Shown here: in pieces, positions 1-23,436 of the stretch
Layout of the letters: each line of letters starts with the position of its first letter
How positions within the stretch are numbered: the first letter of the stretch is position 1
Position numbers and translations under genes: made by a program
The notes under the pieces: model-generated
Databases searched by the model: none
Told to the model about the DNA's origin: nothing
What the model saw: the letters and a program-made list of their open reading frames with translations, nothing else
Source: an uncultured Anaerolineaceae bacterium
GTDB lineage: Bacteria; Chloroflexota; Anaerolineae; Anaerolineales; E44-bin32
Reading direction: 5' to 3'
DNA length: 57,468 nt
Assembly: GCA_964590515.1 (NCBI GenBank)
Contig: CAZPZD010000004.1
Span: 23,223-80,690, forward strand

Positions 1-60
1 AAGCCGGCAGCCAAGCCGGCAGCCAAACCGGCAGCCAAACGAGCGGCCAAACGGGCGGCC
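1..60 (+). repeat. Five imperfect 12-bp coding tandem repeats (KPAA/KRAA)
   Basis: aagccggcagcc x2, aaaccggcagcc, aaacgagcggcc, aaacgggcggcc. Confidence 0.85.
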
Positions 61-150
61 GTAAAGCGGAGTGCCCCGAAGCCCTCCGGGAAGCCCCGCA
101 AGACCGCCGGGAAGTCCACGTCGCCTCGGGCGAAGAAGAAGAAGGGCTAA
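1..150 (+). CDS. rplU: 3' end of probable 50S ribosomal protein L21 with a Lys/Ala/Pro-rich, histone-H1-like tail (partial)
   Basis: Frame 1 reads [52 protein letters not shown] and ends 4 nt before rpmA. Identity rests only on the conserved rplU-rpmA synteny; the core domain is outside the window. Confidence 0.6.
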
Positions 151-154
151 TCCA

Positions 155-424
155 ATGGCACACAAGAAAGGCGGAGGATCCACCCGCAACGGCCGAGACA
201 GCCACTCCCAGCGTCTGGGAGTCAAGCGATACGCCGGCGAATACCTGCGTTCTGGCAACATCATCATCCGCCAGCGCGGAAGTCGGATCCATCCGGGGTT
301 GAATGTCGACAAAGGCGGAGACGATACGCTCTTCGCTACGGCCGATGGCGTATTGAAGTTTGATTTCGGGCCCGGCGGGCGCAGGCGGGCCAATGTCATT
401 CCACAAACGGAGATCGTCCAGTGA
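155..424 (+). CDS. rpmA: 50S ribosomal protein L27
   Basis: [25 protein letters not shown]...IIIRQRG...GGDDTLFA signature; true start is the ATG at 155 inside the longer ORF. Confidence 0.97.
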
Positions 425-894
425 GACCAGGCATTCATCCCAATTACTTCCCGAACGCAACGGTGGTTTGTTCTTGTGGCAATACCTGGACCACCGGGTC
501 AACGATCGAGATGATTCACACCGATGTCTGTTCCAACTGTCATCCCTTCTATACCGGCGAACAGCGGATTGTCGACACCGAAGGCCAGGTTGACCGCTTC
601 TATCGGAAGCTCGAAGCCCGCCAAGGCTACCTAGAGGAGATTCGGGAGCGGGAGGTGGCGCGCACTTCGCCCTCGATCCCGATCTCCGAGTTGGAATTGG
701 GTAAGCGCGCAGAGCAGGCGCTGGCCCAGGCCGGGATTACTCAGGTCGGCCAGGCGCTTGCGCTCATGGAGCAAGGGGACCTTGCCATCTTGGCGATTGA
801 GAACTTTGGTCGCAAGAGCCTGGCCGACTTGAAGCGTCGGCTCAAAGCGCGAGGTTTCGAACTCCCCACCGCGGCAATGGAGCCGCAGGTGTAG
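421..894 (+). CDS. rpmE: 50S ribosomal protein L31 (Zn-binding type) fused to a C-terminal RNA polymerase alpha-CTD-like domain
   Basis: N-terminal [31 protein letters not shown] is L31. C-terminal [39 protein letters not shown] matches the alpha-CTD pattern. GTGA overlap with rpmA. Confidence 0.93.
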
Positions 895-977: not shown

Positions 978-1538
978 TTGACCGGTTCAATTGAAGTCAT
1001 CACCGGGTCGATGTTCAGCGGGAAGACCGATGAACTGATCCGCCGTCTGCGTCGGGCGACGATCGCCCGGCAGCAAGTTCAAGTATTTAAACCGCAGGTG
1101 GACACCCGCTATCAGTCGGACAGAGTGACCTCTCATGCCGGGGGTCAATTCGAGGCGACTCCGGTGGCCAAGGCGGACCAGATTCCGGGGCTGGTGGCAG
1201 CCGAGTCAACCGTTGTGGCATTTGATGAGGCGCAGTTCTTCGATCCGAACATCATTGAAGTGTGCCGGGAATTGGCCGATCGAGGATTGCGGGTGATTGT
1301 GGCCGGATTGGACACCGACTTCCGCGGCGACCCGTTCGGCCCGGTGCCGGTCTTGATGGCGGTTGGCGAACGGGTGGACAAGCTGCAGGCGATCTGCATG
1401 GTCTGCGGGGAGGCCGCCAGTCGGACCCAACGGCTGATTGACGGCAGGCCGGCCCGCGCCTCGGATCCGGTGATCGCGGTGGGGGCCAGCGAGCTGTACG
1501 AAGCACGCTGCCGCAAGCATCACGAGGTACCTGGATGA
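978..1538 (+). CDS. tdk: Thymidine kinase
   Basis: GSMFSGKT P-loop, [18 protein letters not shown]...YEARCRKH zinc site; GAGGAG RBS before the TTG start. Confidence 0.97.
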
Positions 1539-2101
1539 GAGACTATCGCGAGTTCCTGGATGAGATCCTGATTAGCGAGGAACAACTTCAATCGCGAATT
1601 CAACAGCTCGGGGTCGAGATCAGCCGGGACTACATCGATCAGGACCTCCTGCTGATTTGCGTCCTGCGGGGAGGAGTGCTCTTTCTCGCCGACCTGATGA
1701 GGAACATCAGCGTCCCGCTCAGCATCGATTTCATGGCGGTCTCCTCCTACGGTGCCGGCTCCCGGCAGTCGAAAGGCCAGGTGCGAATCTCACTGGACCT
1801 TACGACTTCGATCGAGGAGCGCAATGTCCTTTTGGTCGAAGACATTATTGACAGCGGGCACACGATCGCCTCGGTACTGGAGATGCTCAGCCTCCGTCGG
1901 CCGAGCAGCCTGCGGGTCTGCGCCCTACTCGACAAGGCCGACCGGCGGGAGGTCGTCGTCCCGATCCACTATCGGGGTTTCATCATCCCAAACAAGTTCG
2001 TCTTCGGTTACGGGCTCGACCTCGACGAATACTATCGAAATCTGCCGTTCGTCGGGGTCCTGCGGCCGGACAAAGCTTCCGAGCTTGACCAAGCTGGTTG
2101 A
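1535..2101 (+). CDS. hpt: Hypoxanthine phosphoribosyltransferase
   Basis: [23 protein letters not shown] motif, FVFGYGLD. Confidence 0.97.
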
Positions 2102-3575
2102 GCAGCTCATCCAACCGGAGATCCTGAGCCTACTGCTCCGGCATGCTGGGGACCGGGAGATCTGGCTGGTGGGCGGCGCACTGCGGGACCATTTCTTGGG
2201 TCGCTCCAGACCTGACCTCGATTTCGTGGTCGATCGCGAGGCGACCACCTTGGCCCGGCTGCTGTCGGACGATTTGCACGCCGGCTTCCATTCCCTGGAC
2301 GACGAACGCGATGCGGCCAGAGTCAGCCTACCCGACCAGGCTGGGACTCTCGACTTCGTCCGGAGAGCTGGATCCTCGATTGAAACCGATCTAAGGGAGC
2401 GAGACTTCACGATCAACGCGCTCGCGTTGGCACTGGTAGGCGCCGAGCGCTTGATCGACCCGTTGGGGGGCCTGCAGGACCTGAAGGACAAGCGACTGCG
2501 CCCGTGTTCAGCAGAGGCCATCGCCCGTGACCCGGTCCGCGCCCTGCGGGCCGTTCGCTTGGCGGCCGAGCTCGGGCTGCGCATGGAGCCCGAAGCGGTC
2601 GAACAGGTCCGAGCCGCGGGCGACCAGCTGGGGGGGGTTTCGGCCGAGCGAATTCGGGATGAGTTCATGAGGATGCTCGAACCGTCCATTGCCCGAACCG
2701 CAGTTCGCTTGCTGGATCATCTGGGGCTGCTCATCCGAGTCTGTCCGGAGCTCGACCAGCTCCCTGGCTCCGATCCTTCGAGTCGAGAACGTAGCCTATC
2801 GACCCTGGACCGGCTTGCGGAGCTTGTGCACCTGTTGGGTCTGCGAACAGACCGGCAACGGATTGGGAACCTGGCATTGGCCGAAGTCGCGCTCCAACTG
2901 GGAAGCTACCGGACGGGCCTCAGTGCCCACCTGGAGGGCCGGCTGCGCGGTGGGCGGCGGGTCGCCCAACTCTTGAGCCTGGCGGCGCTCTACTTGCCGA
3001 GCGAGAGTAGTTCCGAGCAGAGCGCGGCTGCGGCCGCCTCCGGATCGGCAGAGCTCGCCCTTCGGCGCGGATTGGCGTTGCGACTCAGCCGCCCGGAGGC
3101 TATTCGGATTCAGACCATCGTCCTCAACTTCCGGTGGCTTGTGAATTTTTCGACCTCCGGGCCGCCCAGCGACGGCGAGGTCTATCGTTTCTTTCGGGCC
3201 AGCGGGGAGGCCGGGATCGAGCTGGTTTTGTTGTACCTGGCAGTCTCACTGGCCGAGCTGGGTTCGGCTCCAGAGCCCGTGGAGTGGAGGTCAAGGATTG
3301 GAATCGCTCGGACCCTCTTCCAAGCCTGGTTTGAGCGCGGGGATCTGGTGGTAACACCGCGTAAGCTGATATCCGGCGATGAGCTCGCGAGTGCGTTGGG
3401 TCTGCCGGCTGGAAAGATTATCGGGGATCTGCTGGAAGCGATTCGAGAGGCCCAAGCCGAGGGCCGGGTCCACGACCGGGACTCGGCGCTTCAGTTGGCC
3501 CGAGTAGAGCTGGAATCCGACCGGGCTCGGCTGCCGATCGGGAGGCCTTCGGGCGTCACGGGTAAACCTCAGTGA
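2085..3575 (+). CDS. Class II tRNA nucleotidyltransferase, probably CC-adding type (start approximate)
   Basis: LVGGALRD..DLDF (motif A), ERDFTINA (B), DPLGGLQDL (C), RDPVRALRA (D), SAERIRDE (E). The flexible loop before motif B is missing and the HD motif is degenerate. Confidence 0.88.
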   Translation: MTKLVEQLIQPEILSLLLRHAGDREIWLVGGALRDHFLGRSRPDLDFVVDREATTLARLLSDDLHAGFHSLDDERDAARVSLPDQAGTLDFVRRAGSSIETDLRERDFTINALALALVGAERLIDPLGGLQDLKDKRLRPCSAEAIARDPVRALRAVRLAAELGLRMEPEAVEQVRAAGDQLGGVSAERIRDEFMRMLEPSIARTAVRLLDHLGLLIRVCPELDQLPGSDPSSRERSLSTLDRLAELVHLLGLRTDRQRIGNLALAEVALQLGSYRTGLSAHLEGRLRGGRRVAQLLSLAALYLPSESSSEQSAAAAASGSAELALRRGLALRLSRPEAIRIQTIVLNFRWLVNFSTSGPPSDGEVYRFFRASGEAGIELVLLYLAVSLAELGSAPEPVEWRSRIGIARTLFQAWFERGDLVVTPRKLISGDELASALGLPAGKIIGDLLEAIREAQAEGRVHDRDSALQLARVELESDRARLPIGRPSGVTGKPQ

Positions 3576-3792
3576 GGGCGGGTTCGAAGAAACAACGGCA
3601 GTGCAGCGGATGAGAACAACCAGAAGTAGGCAGTCCCGGGACCGTCGCTTTCTCGTATTCCCCTTCCTGCTCCCGGCAAGCCGGGCAGGCATCGTGAGCG
3701 ACGATAACCCGAATGCGGCTCACCCGCGGGTTGTCCCGCATTCGGGAAAGGGCTACCTCCTGGGGGCTGTCCATCGATTCAGGCGAGAACAT
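3556..3792 (-). CDS. Small Cys-rich hypothetical protein, putative Zn-binding
   Basis: 78 aa with DACPAC...GCSHPLHCRC; TACAAT -10 box 11 nt upstream of the ATG; fills the gap between the nucleotidyltransferase and dinB. Confidence 0.7.
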   Translation of the reverse strand: MFSPESMDSPQEVALSRMRDNPRVSRIRVIVAHDACPACREQEGEYEKATVPGLPTSGCSHPLHCRCFFEPALTEVYP

Positions 3793-3827
3793 GTGCGTTG
3801 CGGATTGTACACCTCAGCCGGTCCGAG

Positions 3828-4985
3828 ATGACCCGAGCCGTTCTGCACGTCGACCTTGATGCGTTTTTCTGCTCGGTAGAAGAACTGCTGGCACCTGAAC
3901 TCAAGGGGCAGGCCTTTGCTGTGGGCGGACGGCCGGAGGGGAGGGGAGTCGTGGCCTCGGCCTCCTACGCCGCTCGAAATTTCGGGGTTCGATCGGCGAT
4001 GCCGATGGCCCAGGCCGTGCGGTTGTGTCCCGGGCTGCGGATTGTCCGACCGCGGCACGGAGAGTATTCGGACCATTCAGAACGCGTGATTCAGTATTTG
4101 CGTGACTCGGTTCCGGTCGTTGAACAGATCTCGATAGACGAGGCATTCCTGGATGCGAGCGACGACCCGCGGGGAGGCTCGGGCGTGGCCAAGCAGATGC
4201 AGACCGAAATCGGCGATCGGTTTGGCCTGCCAAGTTCCTGGGGGATAGCCAGCAATAAGCTGGTCGCCAAGATCGCCACGGAAGTCGGCAAGCCCGGCGG
4301 GCTGATCGCCGTTCCCGGCGGCTCGGAGGCCCAGTTCCTCGCCCCGCTTCCGGTTGGCATGCTCTGGGGCATCGGCCCTAAGACTGAGGCCCGGCTGGCG
4401 GAGCTCGAGATTCGGACCATCGGCCAGTTGGCCCGCCTCTCGGCGGATCGGCTCGGAGCGACACTTGGAGATTGGGGCACAGAACTTGCAGTCAGGGCCC
4501 AGGGACTGGACGACCGGCCTGTCGAGGATTCCTATGAACCGCGATCGGTCTCCGCAGAGCAGACCTTTGCAAAGGATGTTTCATCCGAACCGAAACTGCG
4601 CCGCTGTTTGCTGGAATCAAGCGAAAGAGTAGGCCGGCGGTTGCGCCGAGCCGAGTTGGCCGGATCGACGGTCCGGATCAAACTGCGCTGGCCGGACTTT
4701 GCCACGATCAGCAGGCAAGTTCGGCTGGCTCAGCCAACGGACCAGGACCAGGAGATCTTTCGGGCCGCCTGGTCGCTGTTTCAGGCCAACTGGCGCCGCG
4801 GCCGGGCGGTCCGTTTGCTCGGGGTGGGCGTGTCGGATTTGGGTGCACCCCTGCGCCAGCTTGAGCTATTCGACCGGGCCTGGGAGCACGACCGGAAGCT
4901 ATTGCAAGCGATCGACCGGCTGCGGGCCAAGTATGGTTCGGATGTGTTGACCCGCGCCGGCGAGTGGGCCGCCGAACAGGAATGA
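3828..4985 (+). CDS. dinB: DNA polymerase IV (Y family)
   Basis: LHVDLDAFFCSVE, SYAARNFGV, SIDEAFLD, C-terminal little-finger domain, QLELF clamp-binding motif. Confidence 0.96.
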   Translation: MTRAVLHVDLDAFFCSVEELLAPELKGQAFAVGGRPEGRGVVASASYAARNFGVRSAMPMAQAVRLCPGLRIVRPRHGEYSDHSERVIQYLRDSVPVVEQISIDEAFLDASDDPRGGSGVAKQMQTEIGDRFGLPSSWGIASNKLVAKIATEVGKPGGLIAVPGGSEAQFLAPLPVGMLWGIGPKTEARLAELEIRTIGQLARLSADRLGATLGDWGTELAVRAQGLDDRPVEDSYEPRSVSAEQTFAKDVSSEPKLRRCLLESSERVGRRLRRAELAGSTVRIKLRWPDFATISRQVRLAQPTDQDQEIFRAAWSLFQANWRRGRAVRLLGVGVSDLGAPLRQLELFDRAWEHDRKLLQAIDRLRAKYGSDVLTRAGEWAAEQE

Positions 4986-5035
4986 GCGGAGATTACCGGC
5001 ACGAACGCCGGGCGAGGGTGCAGGATGACTGAGCA

Positions 5036-6136
5036 ATGACCCTGCTTGGCAAGGGCTACTATATCTGGCAGATCTGGAACTGCGAGGGGGGTGATCCGAG
5101 CGCGATCGCCGCCAAGGCGAAGTCCGCCGGCCTCTCGCATGTTCTAGTGAAGATCGCGGATGGGACGCTGTTGTACAACGTGGACAAGAACACCAAGCAT
5201 GACCTGGTGCCGCCGCTCATCGCCGCCTGTCGGAAGGAGGGCATCCAAGTTTGGGGCTGGCATTACATCCGTGGCAGTAACCCGATCGGAGAGGCCCGGA
5301 TCGCCGTGCAGCGTAGTCTGGAGCTGGGGGTGGATGGTTATGTCATCGATGCCGAGGGGGAATTTCAGACCGGCAAGAAGCAATCCTCCGCACGCCGCTT
5401 CATGCAGGAGCTTCGCGCGGGTCTGCCGAACCTCCCGGTGGCCCTCAGCACCTACCGCTTCCCAAAACGCCACACTCCATTCCCATTCGCCGAATTTCTA
5501 GAGGGTTGCGATTACGCCATGCCGCAGGTGTATTACGAGGAAGCTCATAATCCGGAGGCCCAACTGGAGTTGTGCGTCGAGCAATATCTTGCCCTGAACC
5601 CAGCTCGACCGATCATCCCGACTGCCCCGACCTACGGCCGCGGTAGCTGGCGGCCGACCGCGGACGAGACCACTCGGTTTCTTGCCAAGGCCAAGGAACT
5701 TGGCCTGAGCGCGGCCAACGCCTGGAGCTGGGATGTCGCCTCGCGCGATGCATACAGCGACCTGTGGGCCGCAGTGGCGGCGTTCGAGTGGCCCACCCAA
5801 CCACCGGTTGCCGACATGCCGGAGCGACTGGTCGGCCGGCTGAATGAGGGCGACATCAATTTGGTGGCAGGTCTCTACGCCGAAAATGCGGCTCATGTCA
5901 CCGGGCAGCGGATGGTATTCTCGCGGAGCGCAATCGCCGACTGGTATCGCCAGCTACTTGGTGAATTGCTCCCAGGGGGAGAATTCGCAATCACCGGAAA
6001 AGCGGGATCCGGCTCAACTCGCCATTACACGTGGACCGCCCGCAGTCCGAAGGGGCAGGTCTTGGATGGCAACGACACTCTGGGGCTCCGCGAAGAACGG
6101 ATTCAGTTCCACTTCAGCTACTTTACAATTCGCTAA
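5036..6136 (+). CDS. Glycoside-hydrolase-like TIM barrel (GH25/GH18-like DxE) with a C-terminal SnoaL/NTF2-like domain
   Basis: VLVKIADG, VWGWHY, YVIDAE, AMPQVY; C-terminal GLYAENAAHV..AIADWY is SnoaL-like. No signal peptide. Confidence 0.6.
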   Translation: MTLLGKGYYIWQIWNCEGGDPSAIAAKAKSAGLSHVLVKIADGTLLYNVDKNTKHDLVPPLIAACRKEGIQVWGWHYIRGSNPIGEARIAVQRSLELGVDGYVIDAEGEFQTGKKQSSARRFMQELRAGLPNLPVALSTYRFPKRHTPFPFAEFLEGCDYAMPQVYYEEAHNPEAQLELCVEQYLALNPARPIIPTAPTYGRGSWRPTADETTRFLAKAKELGLSAANAWSWDVASRDAYSDLWAAVAAFEWPTQPPVADMPERLVGRLNEGDINLVAGLYAENAAHVTGQRMVFSRSAIADWYRQLLGELLPGGEFAITGKAGSGSTRHYTWTARSPKGQVLDGNDTLGLREERIQFHFSYFTIR

Positions 6137-6184
6137 ACTCGGCATTCATCAACGCATGCCCTGCTGTCCAGCTCAACGGCGGCG

Positions 6185-6982
6185 ATGCTGACAAATCTCT
6201 CGATTGACCAGAGCATCGCCCTGTTCGTCGGGGTCTTGACCTTGGTGATGTTAGGCCTGATCTGGCAGGGTTACCGTCGGGTCCAGGCCGCCCAACAGCT
6301 CCCGTACTTCACCCTTCGGCAGCGCCGGCTTCGGGAAGGCTTGCGCCTGATCCTCCTGGGCACCGCGATCGGCATTCTCGGCCTGCTGACCCGCCTTTAT
6401 GGCACTCAAGCGTTTCAGGTCCTGATCACTCCAACCCCCTCACTCACTCCCACTCCCAGCTCGAGCCCGACCCCCACGGTCACAGCGACCCCTTCCATCA
6501 CGCCGACCCCTTCCATCACCATGACCCCGAGCGCGACTCTGATCCCGAGCGCGACTCCGACGCCAGCTATCCCCGACGCGCTGACGGTTCTCTTTCGCGA
6601 GACTATCACCCCAAGACCGGAAGCCGTGTTCAGTCCGCTTGAGTTCAGCCTACGATTGGATCGGCTGAACCGGGCCATCGGGGCCGCAGAGGCTTTTGAG
6701 AACCCGGTCGAGATTCTCTTCGGAGCGTTCACCTACGACGCGATGAACGATGGAGTCCGCTGGACTGCCCTTTGGTACTTCGGATCAGAGATCGTGTGTT
6801 CCGAGACCAAACCCTGGGACGGGGGGACCGGGGGTTACGGGTTCACCGAGTGTGATCCCCCCGAAGGGTTCCAGCCGGGTGAGTATGAAGTCCGAATGTT
6901 TCTGGGGGAAACCTGGAAGGTTTCGGGCCGATTCCTGATCGTCGGATCGGTCGCTCAAGCGACCGCAACCGGAACATCCTAA
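6185..6982 (+). CDS. Membrane protein with two TM helices, a Pro/Thr-rich linker and a C-terminal beta domain
   Basis: Two hydrophobic segments, TPTPS repeats, C-terminal PGEYEVRMF strand. Confidence 0.75.
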   Translation: MLTNLSIDQSIALFVGVLTLVMLGLIWQGYRRVQAAQQLPYFTLRQRRLREGLRLILLGTAIGILGLLTRLYGTQAFQVLITPTPSLTPTPSSSPTPTVTATPSITPTPSITMTPSATLIPSATPTPAIPDALTVLFRETITPRPEAVFSPLEFSLRLDRLNRAIGAAEAFENPVEILFGAFTYDAMNDGVRWTALWYFGSEIVCSETKPWDGGTGGYGFTECDPPEGFQPGEYEVRMFLGETWKVSGRFLIVGSVAQATATGTS

Positions 6983-7017
6983 CCGCCGGTCTGAAAATCG
7001 GGCCTAGGCCGTGAGGA

Positions 7018-8121
7018 TCACGGGCGGCCGTCAAGCAGAATCGCCGCTTCCATCAGCTGGACCAACGCAAGGTAGCCGCGGCGCATCGGGCGGATCTCAA
7101 TGTATTCGTGCAGGGTGTGTGCCTCGCCACCTTTGGTCAGGCCGACGCAGATTCCCGGCAACCCGCGATTGAGCGGGACGCTCGCGTCGGTCGAACCTGC
7201 TTCCAATATTCGATCGCGTTCTCCATTGAGCCGAAGTGACTCGCTCGCCGCCAGGACGAGTGGATGGTCGGTCCGCAGGTCGCCCCCGGGGCGCGAACCA
7301 ACCAGCTCGAGCCTCACCGCTACCAACTCATCTTGATGTCGACTGATGGTTTCTTGGATGCGGGCTTCGAGCTCTGCCAAGGTGCGATCAGATTCAGAAC
7401 GGAGGTCGAGCTCCAGGCTGGCCTCGTCGGCGATCGTGTTAATAGAGCGCCCGCCATTCATGATCCCGATGTTCAAGGTTGTGCGAGGCTCGCGCGGCAA
7501 TGGAATCCGAAGCAGTTGCTCTCCGAGCCGCAACAGTTTGTGCAGGGCGGAGGGGCGATCCCAGTGAATCCAGGCGTGCCCGCCCCGAGCCCGGGCCTGC
7601 AGCCGATAGCGGCGCACCGGCAGGGCCCGATGATAGATATGGCCTAATGCCATCCCCTCCAGGACCAAATAGGCCGCGACCGATTTCCCAAAGCGCTCGA
7701 CGACCTCTATCATTCCGCGTAGGTTACCCAACCCCTCCTCGCACACATTGGCAACCAACCAAATGTCGCCGGCCGGCCGTCGATCCCGGAGGTCGAACGC
7801 CAGCTCCACCAGGGCGGCCAGGGCGACCGCATTGTCGCCGACCCCTGGGCCCGTGAGCCGGGTCCGGGACCGTCGGTGAGCGAGATCGGTGGCGGGAGAG
7901 AACACGCTGTCCAGATGCGCCGACACGACCAGCGGTGGGCGACCATTGCCGGGAACTCGGACATAGAGGTTGCCGAGTGGGCTGATCTCGATTTCCCGTA
8001 GGCCTGCAGTTCGGAATTCCTTCATCAAGTAACGTGCTCGCTCCGCCTCCCCGAAGGTAGGTGCCGGGATGCCCTGCACGGTCAGCGTCCGTTGGATCCA
8101 GCGCTCCAGGTCCATGCTCAA
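7018..8121 (-). CDS. M20/M25/M40-family metallopeptidase
   Basis: SAHLDSV, GDN, CEEGLG, GGHAW, GSTDA, AHTLHE metal-ligand motifs. Confidence 0.92.
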   Translation of the reverse strand: MSMDLERWIQRTLTVQGIPAPTFGEAERARYLMKEFRTAGLREIEISPLGNLYVRVPGNGRPPLVVSAHLDSVFSPATDLAHRRSRTRLTGPGVGDNAVALAALVELAFDLRDRRPAGDIWLVANVCEEGLGNLRGMIEVVERFGKSVAAYLVLEGMALGHIYHRALPVRRYRLQARARGGHAWIHWDRPSALHKLLRLGEQLLRIPLPREPRTTLNIGIMNGGRSINTIADEASLELDLRSESDRTLAELEARIQETISRHQDELVAVRLELVGSRPGGDLRTDHPLVLAASESLRLNGERDRILEAGSTDASVPLNRGLPGICVGLTKGGEAHTLHEYIEIRPMRRGYLALVQLMEAAILLDGRP

Positions 8122-22516: not shown

Positions 22517-23436
22517 TCAGGTGCGTGCAAGTCGGAGCGGATCGGATACTCATTCGGGAAGCACAGGCCACGGTACTCGCAGTGGGAACAGATGCGCGGG
22601 TCGTCGACCCGTCCGAACTTGGCTTTGTCCAGCGGGATATTCTTCTCGACGTCTCGACAGTATTCGTACATCTCCTGAGTCTCGGCGCGGACCTGGATTC
22701 CAAAGTGGTCCAGATCCAACGCGTTGAAGGCCTCTTCCACCTCCTGGTAGCGCGGATGCAGGTAGGCAATGGTCGGCACCACTTTTTCCGCCCCGACCTC
22801 GAAGTGGTAGGAAGCCCAGGCCGAGTAGCCGAGCAACTGCTTGCGGTGCTTAGCGCGGTCTGTCTTGCCGGTCTTCCAGTCCAGGATGTGGAAGTGGTCG
22901 ACCACGGGGAACAGAAAGTCGACCTTGAAGTAAGCCTTGAGGCCGTTCAAGCGGGTCTCGCCATAGCCGGGCGGTTCGATGATCCACTCGCCGCTCGTGT
23001 TGATGGCCTGCTCGACCAGCCAGCGATAGCGGTCGCTCTCGAGCAGGTTTTCCAGACAGACCTGCACCTTGGGATAAAGATCCTCCTCCGTCACCGCCTC
23101 CCGTGTGCCGTAACAGACCTCTTGAAAGCTATTCGACCCGGCATGATGCCTGGCTTCGCGGAAGGCGGTATCGAAGAACATGCTCCGGTCGATATCCTGG
23201 CTGGTGAGGCGCAGCCGGTTCAGCAGCTTCTGGATGATGTCGTGCGCCACGCTCCCGATCTCCAACGGAATCGAGCTCAGGCTCTTGAGCTCCTGAATCA
23301 GGCGCTTCGGCACCTCGGGGTCGTATTTGCTGTAGTACTGGTAGAAGTACTTGCGCTTGCAGAGGGAGAAGGTCTCGTAGCGGGTGGCTGACCAACCCAG
23401 GATGTCGGTGAAGGGGAACCGCTTTATCGGACTCAT
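22513..23436 (-). CDS. Stand-alone PD-(D/E)XK nuclease (RecB/Cas4-like, four-Cys Fe-S staple)
   Basis: WSATRYETFSLCKRKY, KVDFL..ILDWKTG, QLLGY, CSHCEYRGLC. Confidence 0.88.
   Translation of the reverse strand: MSPIKRFPFTDILGWSATRYETFSLCKRKYFYQYYSKYDPEVPKRLIQELKSLSSIPLEIGSVAHDIIQKLLNRLRLTSQDIDRSMFFDTAFREARHHAGSNSFQEVCYGTREAVTEEDLYPKVQVCLENLLESDRYRWLVEQAINTSGEWIIEPPGYGETRLNGLKAYFKVDFLFPVVDHFHILDWKTGKTDRAKHRKQLLGYSAWASYHFEVGAEKVVPTIAYLHPRYQEVEEAFNALDLDHFGIQVRAETQEMYEYCRDVEKNIPLDKAKFGRVDDPRICSHCEYRGLCFPNEYPIRSDLHAPE

Follow-up and report, generated by a model that had tools for sequence, protein, structure and literature searches.

What a domain of the RNA polymerase α subunit does on a protein of the ribosome is the question raised by the rpmE gene of an uncultured Anaerolineaceae bacterium. 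The gene lies near the start of the window analyzed here, a continuous stretch of 57,468 nucleotides (positions 23,223 to 80,690, forward strand, of contig CAZPZD010000004.1, GenBank assembly GCA_964590515.1), whose own numbering is used below unless another locus is named. Whole folded domains are seldom gained by core bacterial ribosomal proteins; here a polymerase domain is fixed, throughout a clade of order rank, on a protein that bridges the two subunits, appears to have been gained more than once, and bears a new conserved surface.

The rpmE Fusion Gene and Its Neighborhood

The rpmE fusion gene (421–894, plus strand) is a single reading frame of 157 codons without an internal stop that, on the basis of NCBIfam and Pfam matches, encodes bL31, a helical arm, and a module of the α-CTD family (157 aa in all). 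Its GTG start overlaps the TGA stop of rpmA (GTGA, 421–424), and a GGAG lies 8 nt upstream of the start. Residues 1–66 (421–618, plus strand) constitute a zinc-type (type A) bL31 domain. Pfam Ribosomal_L31 (PF01197) matches residues 1–63 (E 2.8e-27, 95.1 bits, cutoff 27), and the NCBIfam type A models PRK00019 and TIGR00105 score 94.5 bits (cutoff 70) and 87.4 bits (cutoff 38.35), respectively, whereas the type B model reaches 53.2 bits, below its cutoff of 86. The predicted zinc ligands C17, C19, C37, and C40 form a CxC … CxxC pattern present in 81 of 81 close sequences. Partial rpoA matches in NCBIfam cover residues 70–151, and the fusion is the sole bL31 (PF01197) match found in the source genome, which is 90% complete. 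In fusions of family f8 (L161–L163), bL31 is without the cysteines, yet the module and a 36-residue spacing between the two parts are kept.

The gene follows rpoC in the order rplU-rpmA-rpmE-tdk-hpt, with rplU directly after rpoC. The window opens within the 3′ end of rplU (1–150, plus strand), the first gene of a likely rplU-rpmA-rpmE operon, which encodes a Lys/Ala/Pro-rich, histone-like tail of bL21, and continues with rpmA (155–424, plus strand), assigned to bL27 by Pfam. Among 80 related fusion loci, bL27 is a neighbor in 80, while 77 have bL21 and 72 have tdk. A basic bL21 tail of the same kind occurs in many relatives (among related loci L005–L084), and the bL21 of loci L022 and L041 has instead a small acidic C-terminal domain that, by eye, resembles a helix-loop-helix binding module. 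Neither a sigma-70-like promoter nor a plus-strand terminator was found in positions 1–1300. In one RNA library, contigs of a relative about 95% alike cover 156–639 and 663–955 and are not bridged, and two more libraries cover only the 5′ part; because all three may contain DNA, these contigs are no evidence of expression. Downstream, positions 978–8121 hold ordinary genes for thymidine kinase, hypoxanthine phosphoribosyltransferase, a CCA-adding-type nucleotidyltransferase, DinB, a glycosyl-hydrolase-like protein with a SnoaL domain, a Thr/Pro-repeat membrane protein, and an M20 peptidase.

Reality and Fold of the Fusion

The fusion of bL31 with an α-CTD-family module is confirmed as genuine. 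An initial annotation had described a complete zinc-type L31 running on into an α-CTD-like domain, a description borne out both by Pfam and by the fold. Like Ribosomal_L31, the second model that it proposed to run, RNA_pol_A_CTD (PF03118), scores over its cutoff, covering residues 80–142 (E 3.1e-10, 40.1 bits, cutoff 23.8). The module as delimited by Pfam, structure search, and alignment spans residues 85–149 (673–867, plus strand). An AlphaFold model built on a 56-row alignment (mean pLDDT 75.8) comprises a zinc ribbon, a single helix over residues 53–81, and a helical domain over residues 88–144, whose helices (88–91, 95–103, 109–117, 120–124, and 131–144) make up a four-helix (HhH)2 fold. 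Its pTM of 0.37 means that the mutual arrangement of bL31 and the module is not confidently predicted; a single-sequence model (pLDDT 50) is unusable. A structure search places α-CTDs at ranks 1–6 among 48,161 solved chains (Z 8.0–10.5), with 1z3e_B as the best match (Z 10.5, rmsd 1.8, 67 residues aligned), followed by Rad51-type N-terminal domains (Z up to 7.8) and NusA AR1 (1u9l_B, Z 4.7). In Foldseek, bL31 chains fill the list and the first α-CTD stands at rank 46.

An assembly or frameshift artifact, one of the doubts the annotation itself had raised along with absence from relatives, is rejected, as homologues, 80 related loci, and an independent DNA contig all carry the fusion. Both Pfam domains are found in 119 of the best 120 listed homologues (the query itself among the 120); all 80 loci taken from species genomes, most of which bear Anaerolineales or Anaerolineae in their titles, encode fusion proteins of 149–168 aa; and a contig from a DNA run of a separate study covers 583–898, including the junction, with one difference. 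A split rpoA with its CTD relocated to bL31 is likewise rejected, because the source rpoA is complete (341 aa) and retains its own CTD. Full rpoA matches occur in 30 of 30 relatives, and a blastn search of rpoA against E. coli genomes gave no match.

Distribution

As far as bL31 was read, the fusion extends through the whole order, but its occurrence in the class is patchy. In an even sample of 146 Anaerolineae genomes, 144 of which have a bL31 match, stop-free full-length matches place it in 23 genomes and 10 of 54 families, so that a class-wide fusion is rejected. All 24 genomes of the same order in the phylum sample have at least two α-CTD matches, and in the 14 of them whose bL31 was examined it is fused without exception. 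The survey of rpmE architecture across Chloroflexota that the initial annotation had called for thus finds the fusion within the class but not beyond it: in other classes, 0 of 78 bL31 matches extend to the module, in a sample of 80 of 221 genomes that includes all 37 with extra α-CTD matches, two genomes having no bL31 row and eight weak rows being unlisted. The three closest Atlas clusters are Chloroflexota where the phylum is known. A genome titled Anaerolinea thermophila (L081), the name of a cultured species, carries the fusion. In nearly complete genomes of family f17, which belongs to another class (G010, G045, G054, and G099), α-CTD matches number zero in three and reach E 2e-5 in one; the RpoA of these genomes may have lost its CTD or changed it strongly.

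Origin and History of the Module

The module shares a three-residue insertion, approximately at residues 116–119 (766–777, plus strand) in the alignment, with the RpoA of its lineage. In E. coli RpoA numbering, to which residues are referred by alignment, the stretch from R265 to N294 spans 32–33 residues in 31 of 31 Anaerolineae RpoA and 23 of 23 bL31 modules, and 29 residues in E. coli and in 14 of 14 RpoA of other Chloroflexota. Because this insertion is shared, the module was copied from the lineage's own RpoA, either directly or via another copy. Within the source genome it is 47% identical to the RpoA CTD and 27% to the module of NusA. Three database proteins (P0142, P0153, and P0154) resemble RpoA but have two CTDs in tandem, of which the second belongs to the diverged module type; they show a route that the copying may have taken.

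On a species tree (31 genomes, 888 columns), fused bL31 appears in four places. In a maximum-likelihood tree of 55 modules, which omits bS16, bL21, β′, and other hosts (included in a separate FastTree), 18 bL31 modules from eight families, the source protein among them, form one group (99/99). The bL31 modules of families f82 and f107 fall apart from this main clade, and that of G363 is placed with the NusA module of the same genome (74% identity). The module tree implies four changes, and an AU test of a single bL31 clade gives p 0.042 on 66 columns; a single origin is therefore disfavored, weakly. The well-supported branches force at least two gains, with four as the best estimate. In 14 disjoint pairs of close sequences, dN/dS stands at 0.25 in the module and 0.26 in the arm, compared with 0.09 in the bL31 core, and the module is under purifying selection.

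Conserved Residues and Surface

The glycine hairpin of an HhH motif binds backbone without sequence preference. N268, G296, and S299 are counted here as part of the 265 determinant. According to passages of PMC5101437, the residues with which α-CTD binds the minor groove of UP elements are R265, N294, and K298, located in HhH motifs, and passages of PMC5101437, PMC1874639, and PMC9638938 describe partner contacts via the 261, 265, and 287 surfaces.

The source module keeps the equivalents of R265 (R96; 706–708, plus strand), N294 (N128), G296 (G130), K298 (K132), and S299 (S133), and has lost N268 (Q99). The claim of the initial annotation that the R265/N294/G296/K298/S299 surface is kept is accordingly true of the source protein, but this surface is eroded in the main clade, where retention amounts to 16/18 for R265, 17/18 for G296, 8/18 for S299, 7/18 for K298, 3/18 for N268, and 1/18 for N294. 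The single N294 is that of the source protein; in the HhH hairpin (residues 126–133; 796–819, plus strand; E. coli α 292–299), this position is G in the other 17 modules. In Anaerolineae RpoA, each of the six residues is present in 31 of 31. Decay of the promoter-type residues is uneven, because N128 and K132 are commoner among closer homologues (47 and 119, respectively, of the best 120 listed). As judged from the alignments, the source protein is atypical of the fusion family in its largely kept 265-type residues. R265 itself is kept in nearly all module copies, in every host, and is the α residue that T4 enzymes ADP-ribosylate.

A basic patch specific to bL31 is formed in the last helix by K138, R139, and K142 (832–846, plus strand; E. 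coli α 304, 305, and 308). In the main-clade alignment, all 18 modules have K at position 304 and either K or R at both 305 and 308, while position 305 of RpoA is mostly E, D, or Q. The net charge of the last helix ranges from +1 to +6 in bL31 modules (+6 in the source protein) and from −3 to +3 in RpoA. Between a bL31 module and the RpoA CTD of the same genome, identity is only 24–52%, and positions 258, 261, 263, 264, 267, 268, 271, and 272 vary freely in the modules but are nearly fixed in RpoA.

Other Hosts of the Module

A profile of 55 copies was searched against 110 class genomes, and hosts were then read from the DNA. NusA carries the module in 20 of 30 cases read, twice in some. In the β′ of many Anaerolineae families, it is inserted internally near residues 730–800 (13 read, with ~10 more by frame size), and with variable linkers it is found on bS16 in 10 genomes and on bL21 in four; four genomes have it on bL21, bS16, and NusA. 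Further hosts include XRE-family HTH regulators (three) and DUF4013-like membrane proteins (five, one of them Pfam-confirmed), and one stand-alone frame of ~105 codons was recorded (L186). In 23 of the 110 genomes, only the RpoA copy and no further α-CTD-like match was found. Weak NusA candidates in G343 and G376 were rejected as HhH motifs of what is, by eye, an apparent DNA polymerase X-type protein. A profile search of 1.84 billion proteins is dominated by multi-repeat proteins, yields no host census, and shows the module in up to 12 tandem copies within unrelated proteins. Large proteins that combine several insertion-free α-CTD repeats (up to 12) with a sigma-70 region 4 HTH occur in Anaerolineae and elsewhere. 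As hosts carry the module at unrelated places, a generic binding module is favored over one precise interface.

The source genome has three module copies, on RpoA, bL31, and NusA. Its NusA (640 aa; L115:1486-3408) bears an acidic α-CTD-family module at ~434–499, behind which come an acidic tail and a motif conserved at the C terminus; the mean net charge of Anaerolineae NusA modules is −3.9. The NusA module is absent in 12 of 12 genomes read that have a β′ module, which kinship may explain. NusA was read in 19 fused genomes: a module is present in 13 and undetectable in six, three of the six with an apparent decayed remnant. Rho and NusG are present in the source genome, and its NusG frame (C47:15685-16683, minus strand) has an acidic, Pro/Ala-rich N-terminal extension of ~150 residues before the NusG core.

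The Helical Arm

The helix over residues 53–81 (577–663, plus strand) is predicted to be continuous, with the C-terminal helix of bL31 extended into an arm whose length appears to be fixed. A spacing of 36 between F60 and R96 recurs in 80 of the 81 close sequences; the equivalent distance is 34–37 in all main-clade genomes (26 of 26), whereas f82 and f107 have 42 and G363 has 50. Spacers elsewhere measure 54–65 in RpoA (28 of 31 measured), 53–215 in bS16 (10), and 41–66 in bL21 (four). In NusA, the spacer is nearly fixed in a group that includes the source genome (104–105 in 9 of 20), so that a fixed spacing is not unique to bL31. The AlphaFold model together with these counts suggests that the spacer of bL31 is a helix of fixed length rather than a flexible tether.

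Relation to Known Systems

Canonical type A bL31 (E. coli and T. thermophilus as well as B. subtilis; PF01197, TIGR00105; bridge B1b) has the same four-cysteine residues 1–66, and its chains are the best sequence and fold matches in the PDB of the bL31 part of the fusion. Canonical type A bL31 is ~70 aa long, in contrast to the 157 aa of the fusion, whose helix is predicted to continue to residue 81 and to be followed by a second folded domain. The fusion also differs in being encoded within an rplU-rpmA-rpmE-tdk cluster. Among the 60 PDB matches listed, no bL31 chain covers the module. With the RpoA α-CTD (PF03118), the module shares the family match, the fold, the lineage insertion, R265, and G296. 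However, the fusion is without the α N-terminal domain, a fixed helical arm replaces the variable linker, N268, N294, and K298 are not conserved in the fusion family, and a new basic patch occupies 304/305/308. E. coli NusA AR1/AR2 have a related small helical fold (1u9l_B, Z 4.7), and the Anaerolineae NusA module sits at a similar C-terminal place; the bL31 module is much nearer to α-CTD than to NusA AR1, and its last helix is basic, unlike the acidic AR1/AR2.

Appended domains of this type are represented in NCBIfam. Anaerolineae modules weakly match the C-terminal part of PRK14906, PRK07758 (a 95-aa α-CTD-like protein), and BREX PglW. In PRK14906, a β′ model for a named β′/α fusion, positions 1304–1369 match the module. 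PRK12278 comprises long bL21 models, presumably alphaproteobacterial bL21-HhH fusions of unknown function. PRK14906, PRK12278, PRK07758, and BREX PglW all resemble the fusion in their α-CTD-like or HhH appendages but differ in host and position.

Both families are known, the architecture is visible in automatic Pfam annotation, and related appendages stand in NCBIfam, which limits the surprise. Added here are the limits of its range, its presence on β′, XRE, and membrane proteins, and the finding that conservation has moved away from the 265 surface to a new basic patch. A literature search of mostly non-subscription full texts, judged from titles and the starts of abstracts, listed no paper that describes the fusion; passages of a 2024 review of bacterial ribosomal proteins do not mention it, and those of PMC7363858 make no statement on the bL31 C-terminus.

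Possible Functions

Passages of PMC5137454, PMC10931766, and PMC7550191 describe contacts of bL31 with uL5 and 5S rRNA on the 50S subunit and with uS13 and uS19 on the 30S head. The interpretation of the initial annotation is partly supported; its functional proposals stand on weaker ground, as the UP-element/NusA surface kept in the source protein is not conserved in the family. Since the sole bL31 found carries the module, any ribosome with bL31 in place would expose it close to the 30S head, as the annotation had reasoned; the known position of bL31 (passages of PMC5137454 and PMC10931766) agrees with this, and the sole rpmE found in a 90%-complete genome suggests that fusion bL31 is present in 70S ribosomes at bridge B1b.

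The explanation that best accommodates these features, although its chances fall slightly short of even, is that the module is a retooled α-CTD acting as a nucleic-acid clamp that docks on the RNA of the 30S head. The zinc ribbon would sit on the 50S central protuberance and residues ~45–66 on uS13/uS19, as in other bL31, and the helix would run ~15 residues beyond, setting the module at one defined site. There, K138, R139, and K142, together with R96 and the HhH hairpin, would grip an RNA backbone, most likely that of 16S rRNA, thereby reinforcing bridge B1b or damping head movement. The fusion would then exemplify a habit of this lineage, the placing of small nucleic-acid-binding appendages on ribosomal proteins and transcription machinery. 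The fusion, its fold, its RpoA origin, purifying selection, fixed spacing, and the residue shift emerge directly from the data, and docking at one site near the bL31 end best fits a fixed-length helix, lost promoter-type side chains, and an invariant basic patch. The basic histone-like tail on bL21 of the source and many relatives lends further support to a clamp. On the other hand, DNA, nascent mRNA, or an acidic protein (the NusA tail, for example) would be equally plausible ligands of the basic patch; the source protein keeps five of the six α-CTD DNA residues; and the dN/dS of the module (0.25) is near that of the arm (0.26) and well above that of the bL31 core (0.09). Compensation in 16S rRNA is rejected, as eight fused and 13 unfused genomes are told apart by no column and have head helices of equal length, so that no rRNA co-change backs the docking site. 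The h39 region of 16S rRNA measures 31 nt, versus 45 in E. coli, in 23 of 23 Anaerolineae sequences, fused or not. If an rRNA clamp were true, it would be a clear, datable recycling of a DNA-binding domain into ribosome architecture.

The main rival, a real but minor possibility, is that the module sits on the 30S head and takes hold of the elongation complex (by upstream DNA, nascent RNA, NusA, or RNA polymerase), helping to keep the lead ribosome behind the polymerase. Most module hosts are expressome parts (NusA, β′, bL31, bS16, and bL21), yet XRE regulators and membrane proteins host it as well, and the ribosomal sites of bL31, bS16, and bL21 are scattered, far from one another. NusA is without the module in the 12 genomes read with a β′ module, as if either component could serve as host, although this pattern may reflect shared ancestry only. 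Rho and NusG are present and R265 and the hairpin are kept, but the arm length is fixed, six of the 19 fused genomes are without a detectable NusA module, and 23 of the 110 class genomes have only the RpoA match. Upstream DNA and NusA lie near the head in published expressomes, according to parts of two bioRxiv preprints and PMC12297416; however, few ribosomes are coupled at any time, well-resolved expressomes accounting for 2.8% in untreated M. pneumoniae in the portion of a bioRxiv preprint concerned. The broader proposal of α-CTD as a movable Anaerolineae connector, carried by NusA or β′ and by bL31, bS16, or bL21, through which the head of the Anaerolineales ribosome would hold the transcribing complex by its DNA or NusA, seems rather unlikely. 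It would constitute a third coupling route, hard-wired in a core ribosomal protein instead of NusG or NusA, and reaching the transcription complex would in any case be a new coupling mechanism.

It is unlikely that the module is a weak or off-ribosome appendage, that is, one that mainly supplies non-specific affinity for nucleic acids (associating with the nucleoid, or allowing free bL31 to control its own rplU-rpmA-rpmE mRNA) or a passenger that is tolerated and that selection keeps folded. Its several gains (four changes; AU p 0.042; 74% identity of the G363 copy to its own NusA module), its tandem copies, up to 12, in unrelated proteins, and the fact that most class members do without the fusion are compatible with such a role, as is the finding, in passages of PMC10931766, that E. 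coli bL31 is an autogenous repressor. However, the fusion is retained in 14 of 14 same-order genomes with bL31 read, with an invariant patch and near-invariant spacing across eight families, which indicates a specific contact.

Improbable is a mimic or decoy, in which ribosome-bound or free bL31 would bind the partners of the RpoA CTD (activators, NusA, or R265-modifying phage enzymes) and so link ribosome level to transcription or shield the polymerase: although the fold is a true α-CTD with R265 in nearly all copies and hosts, the 265 surface also binds SoxS and MarA (in passages of PMC9638938), and NusA AR2 binds α-CTD (in passages of PMC12297416), a mimic would be expected to follow the RpoA surface of its host, whereas bL31 modules are only 24–52% identical to the RpoA CTD and vary freely at eight positions.

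Docking of the nucleic-acid clamp on rRNA and a grip on the transcription complex are both directly testable, since A. thermophila is cultured and a genome with this title carries the fusion.
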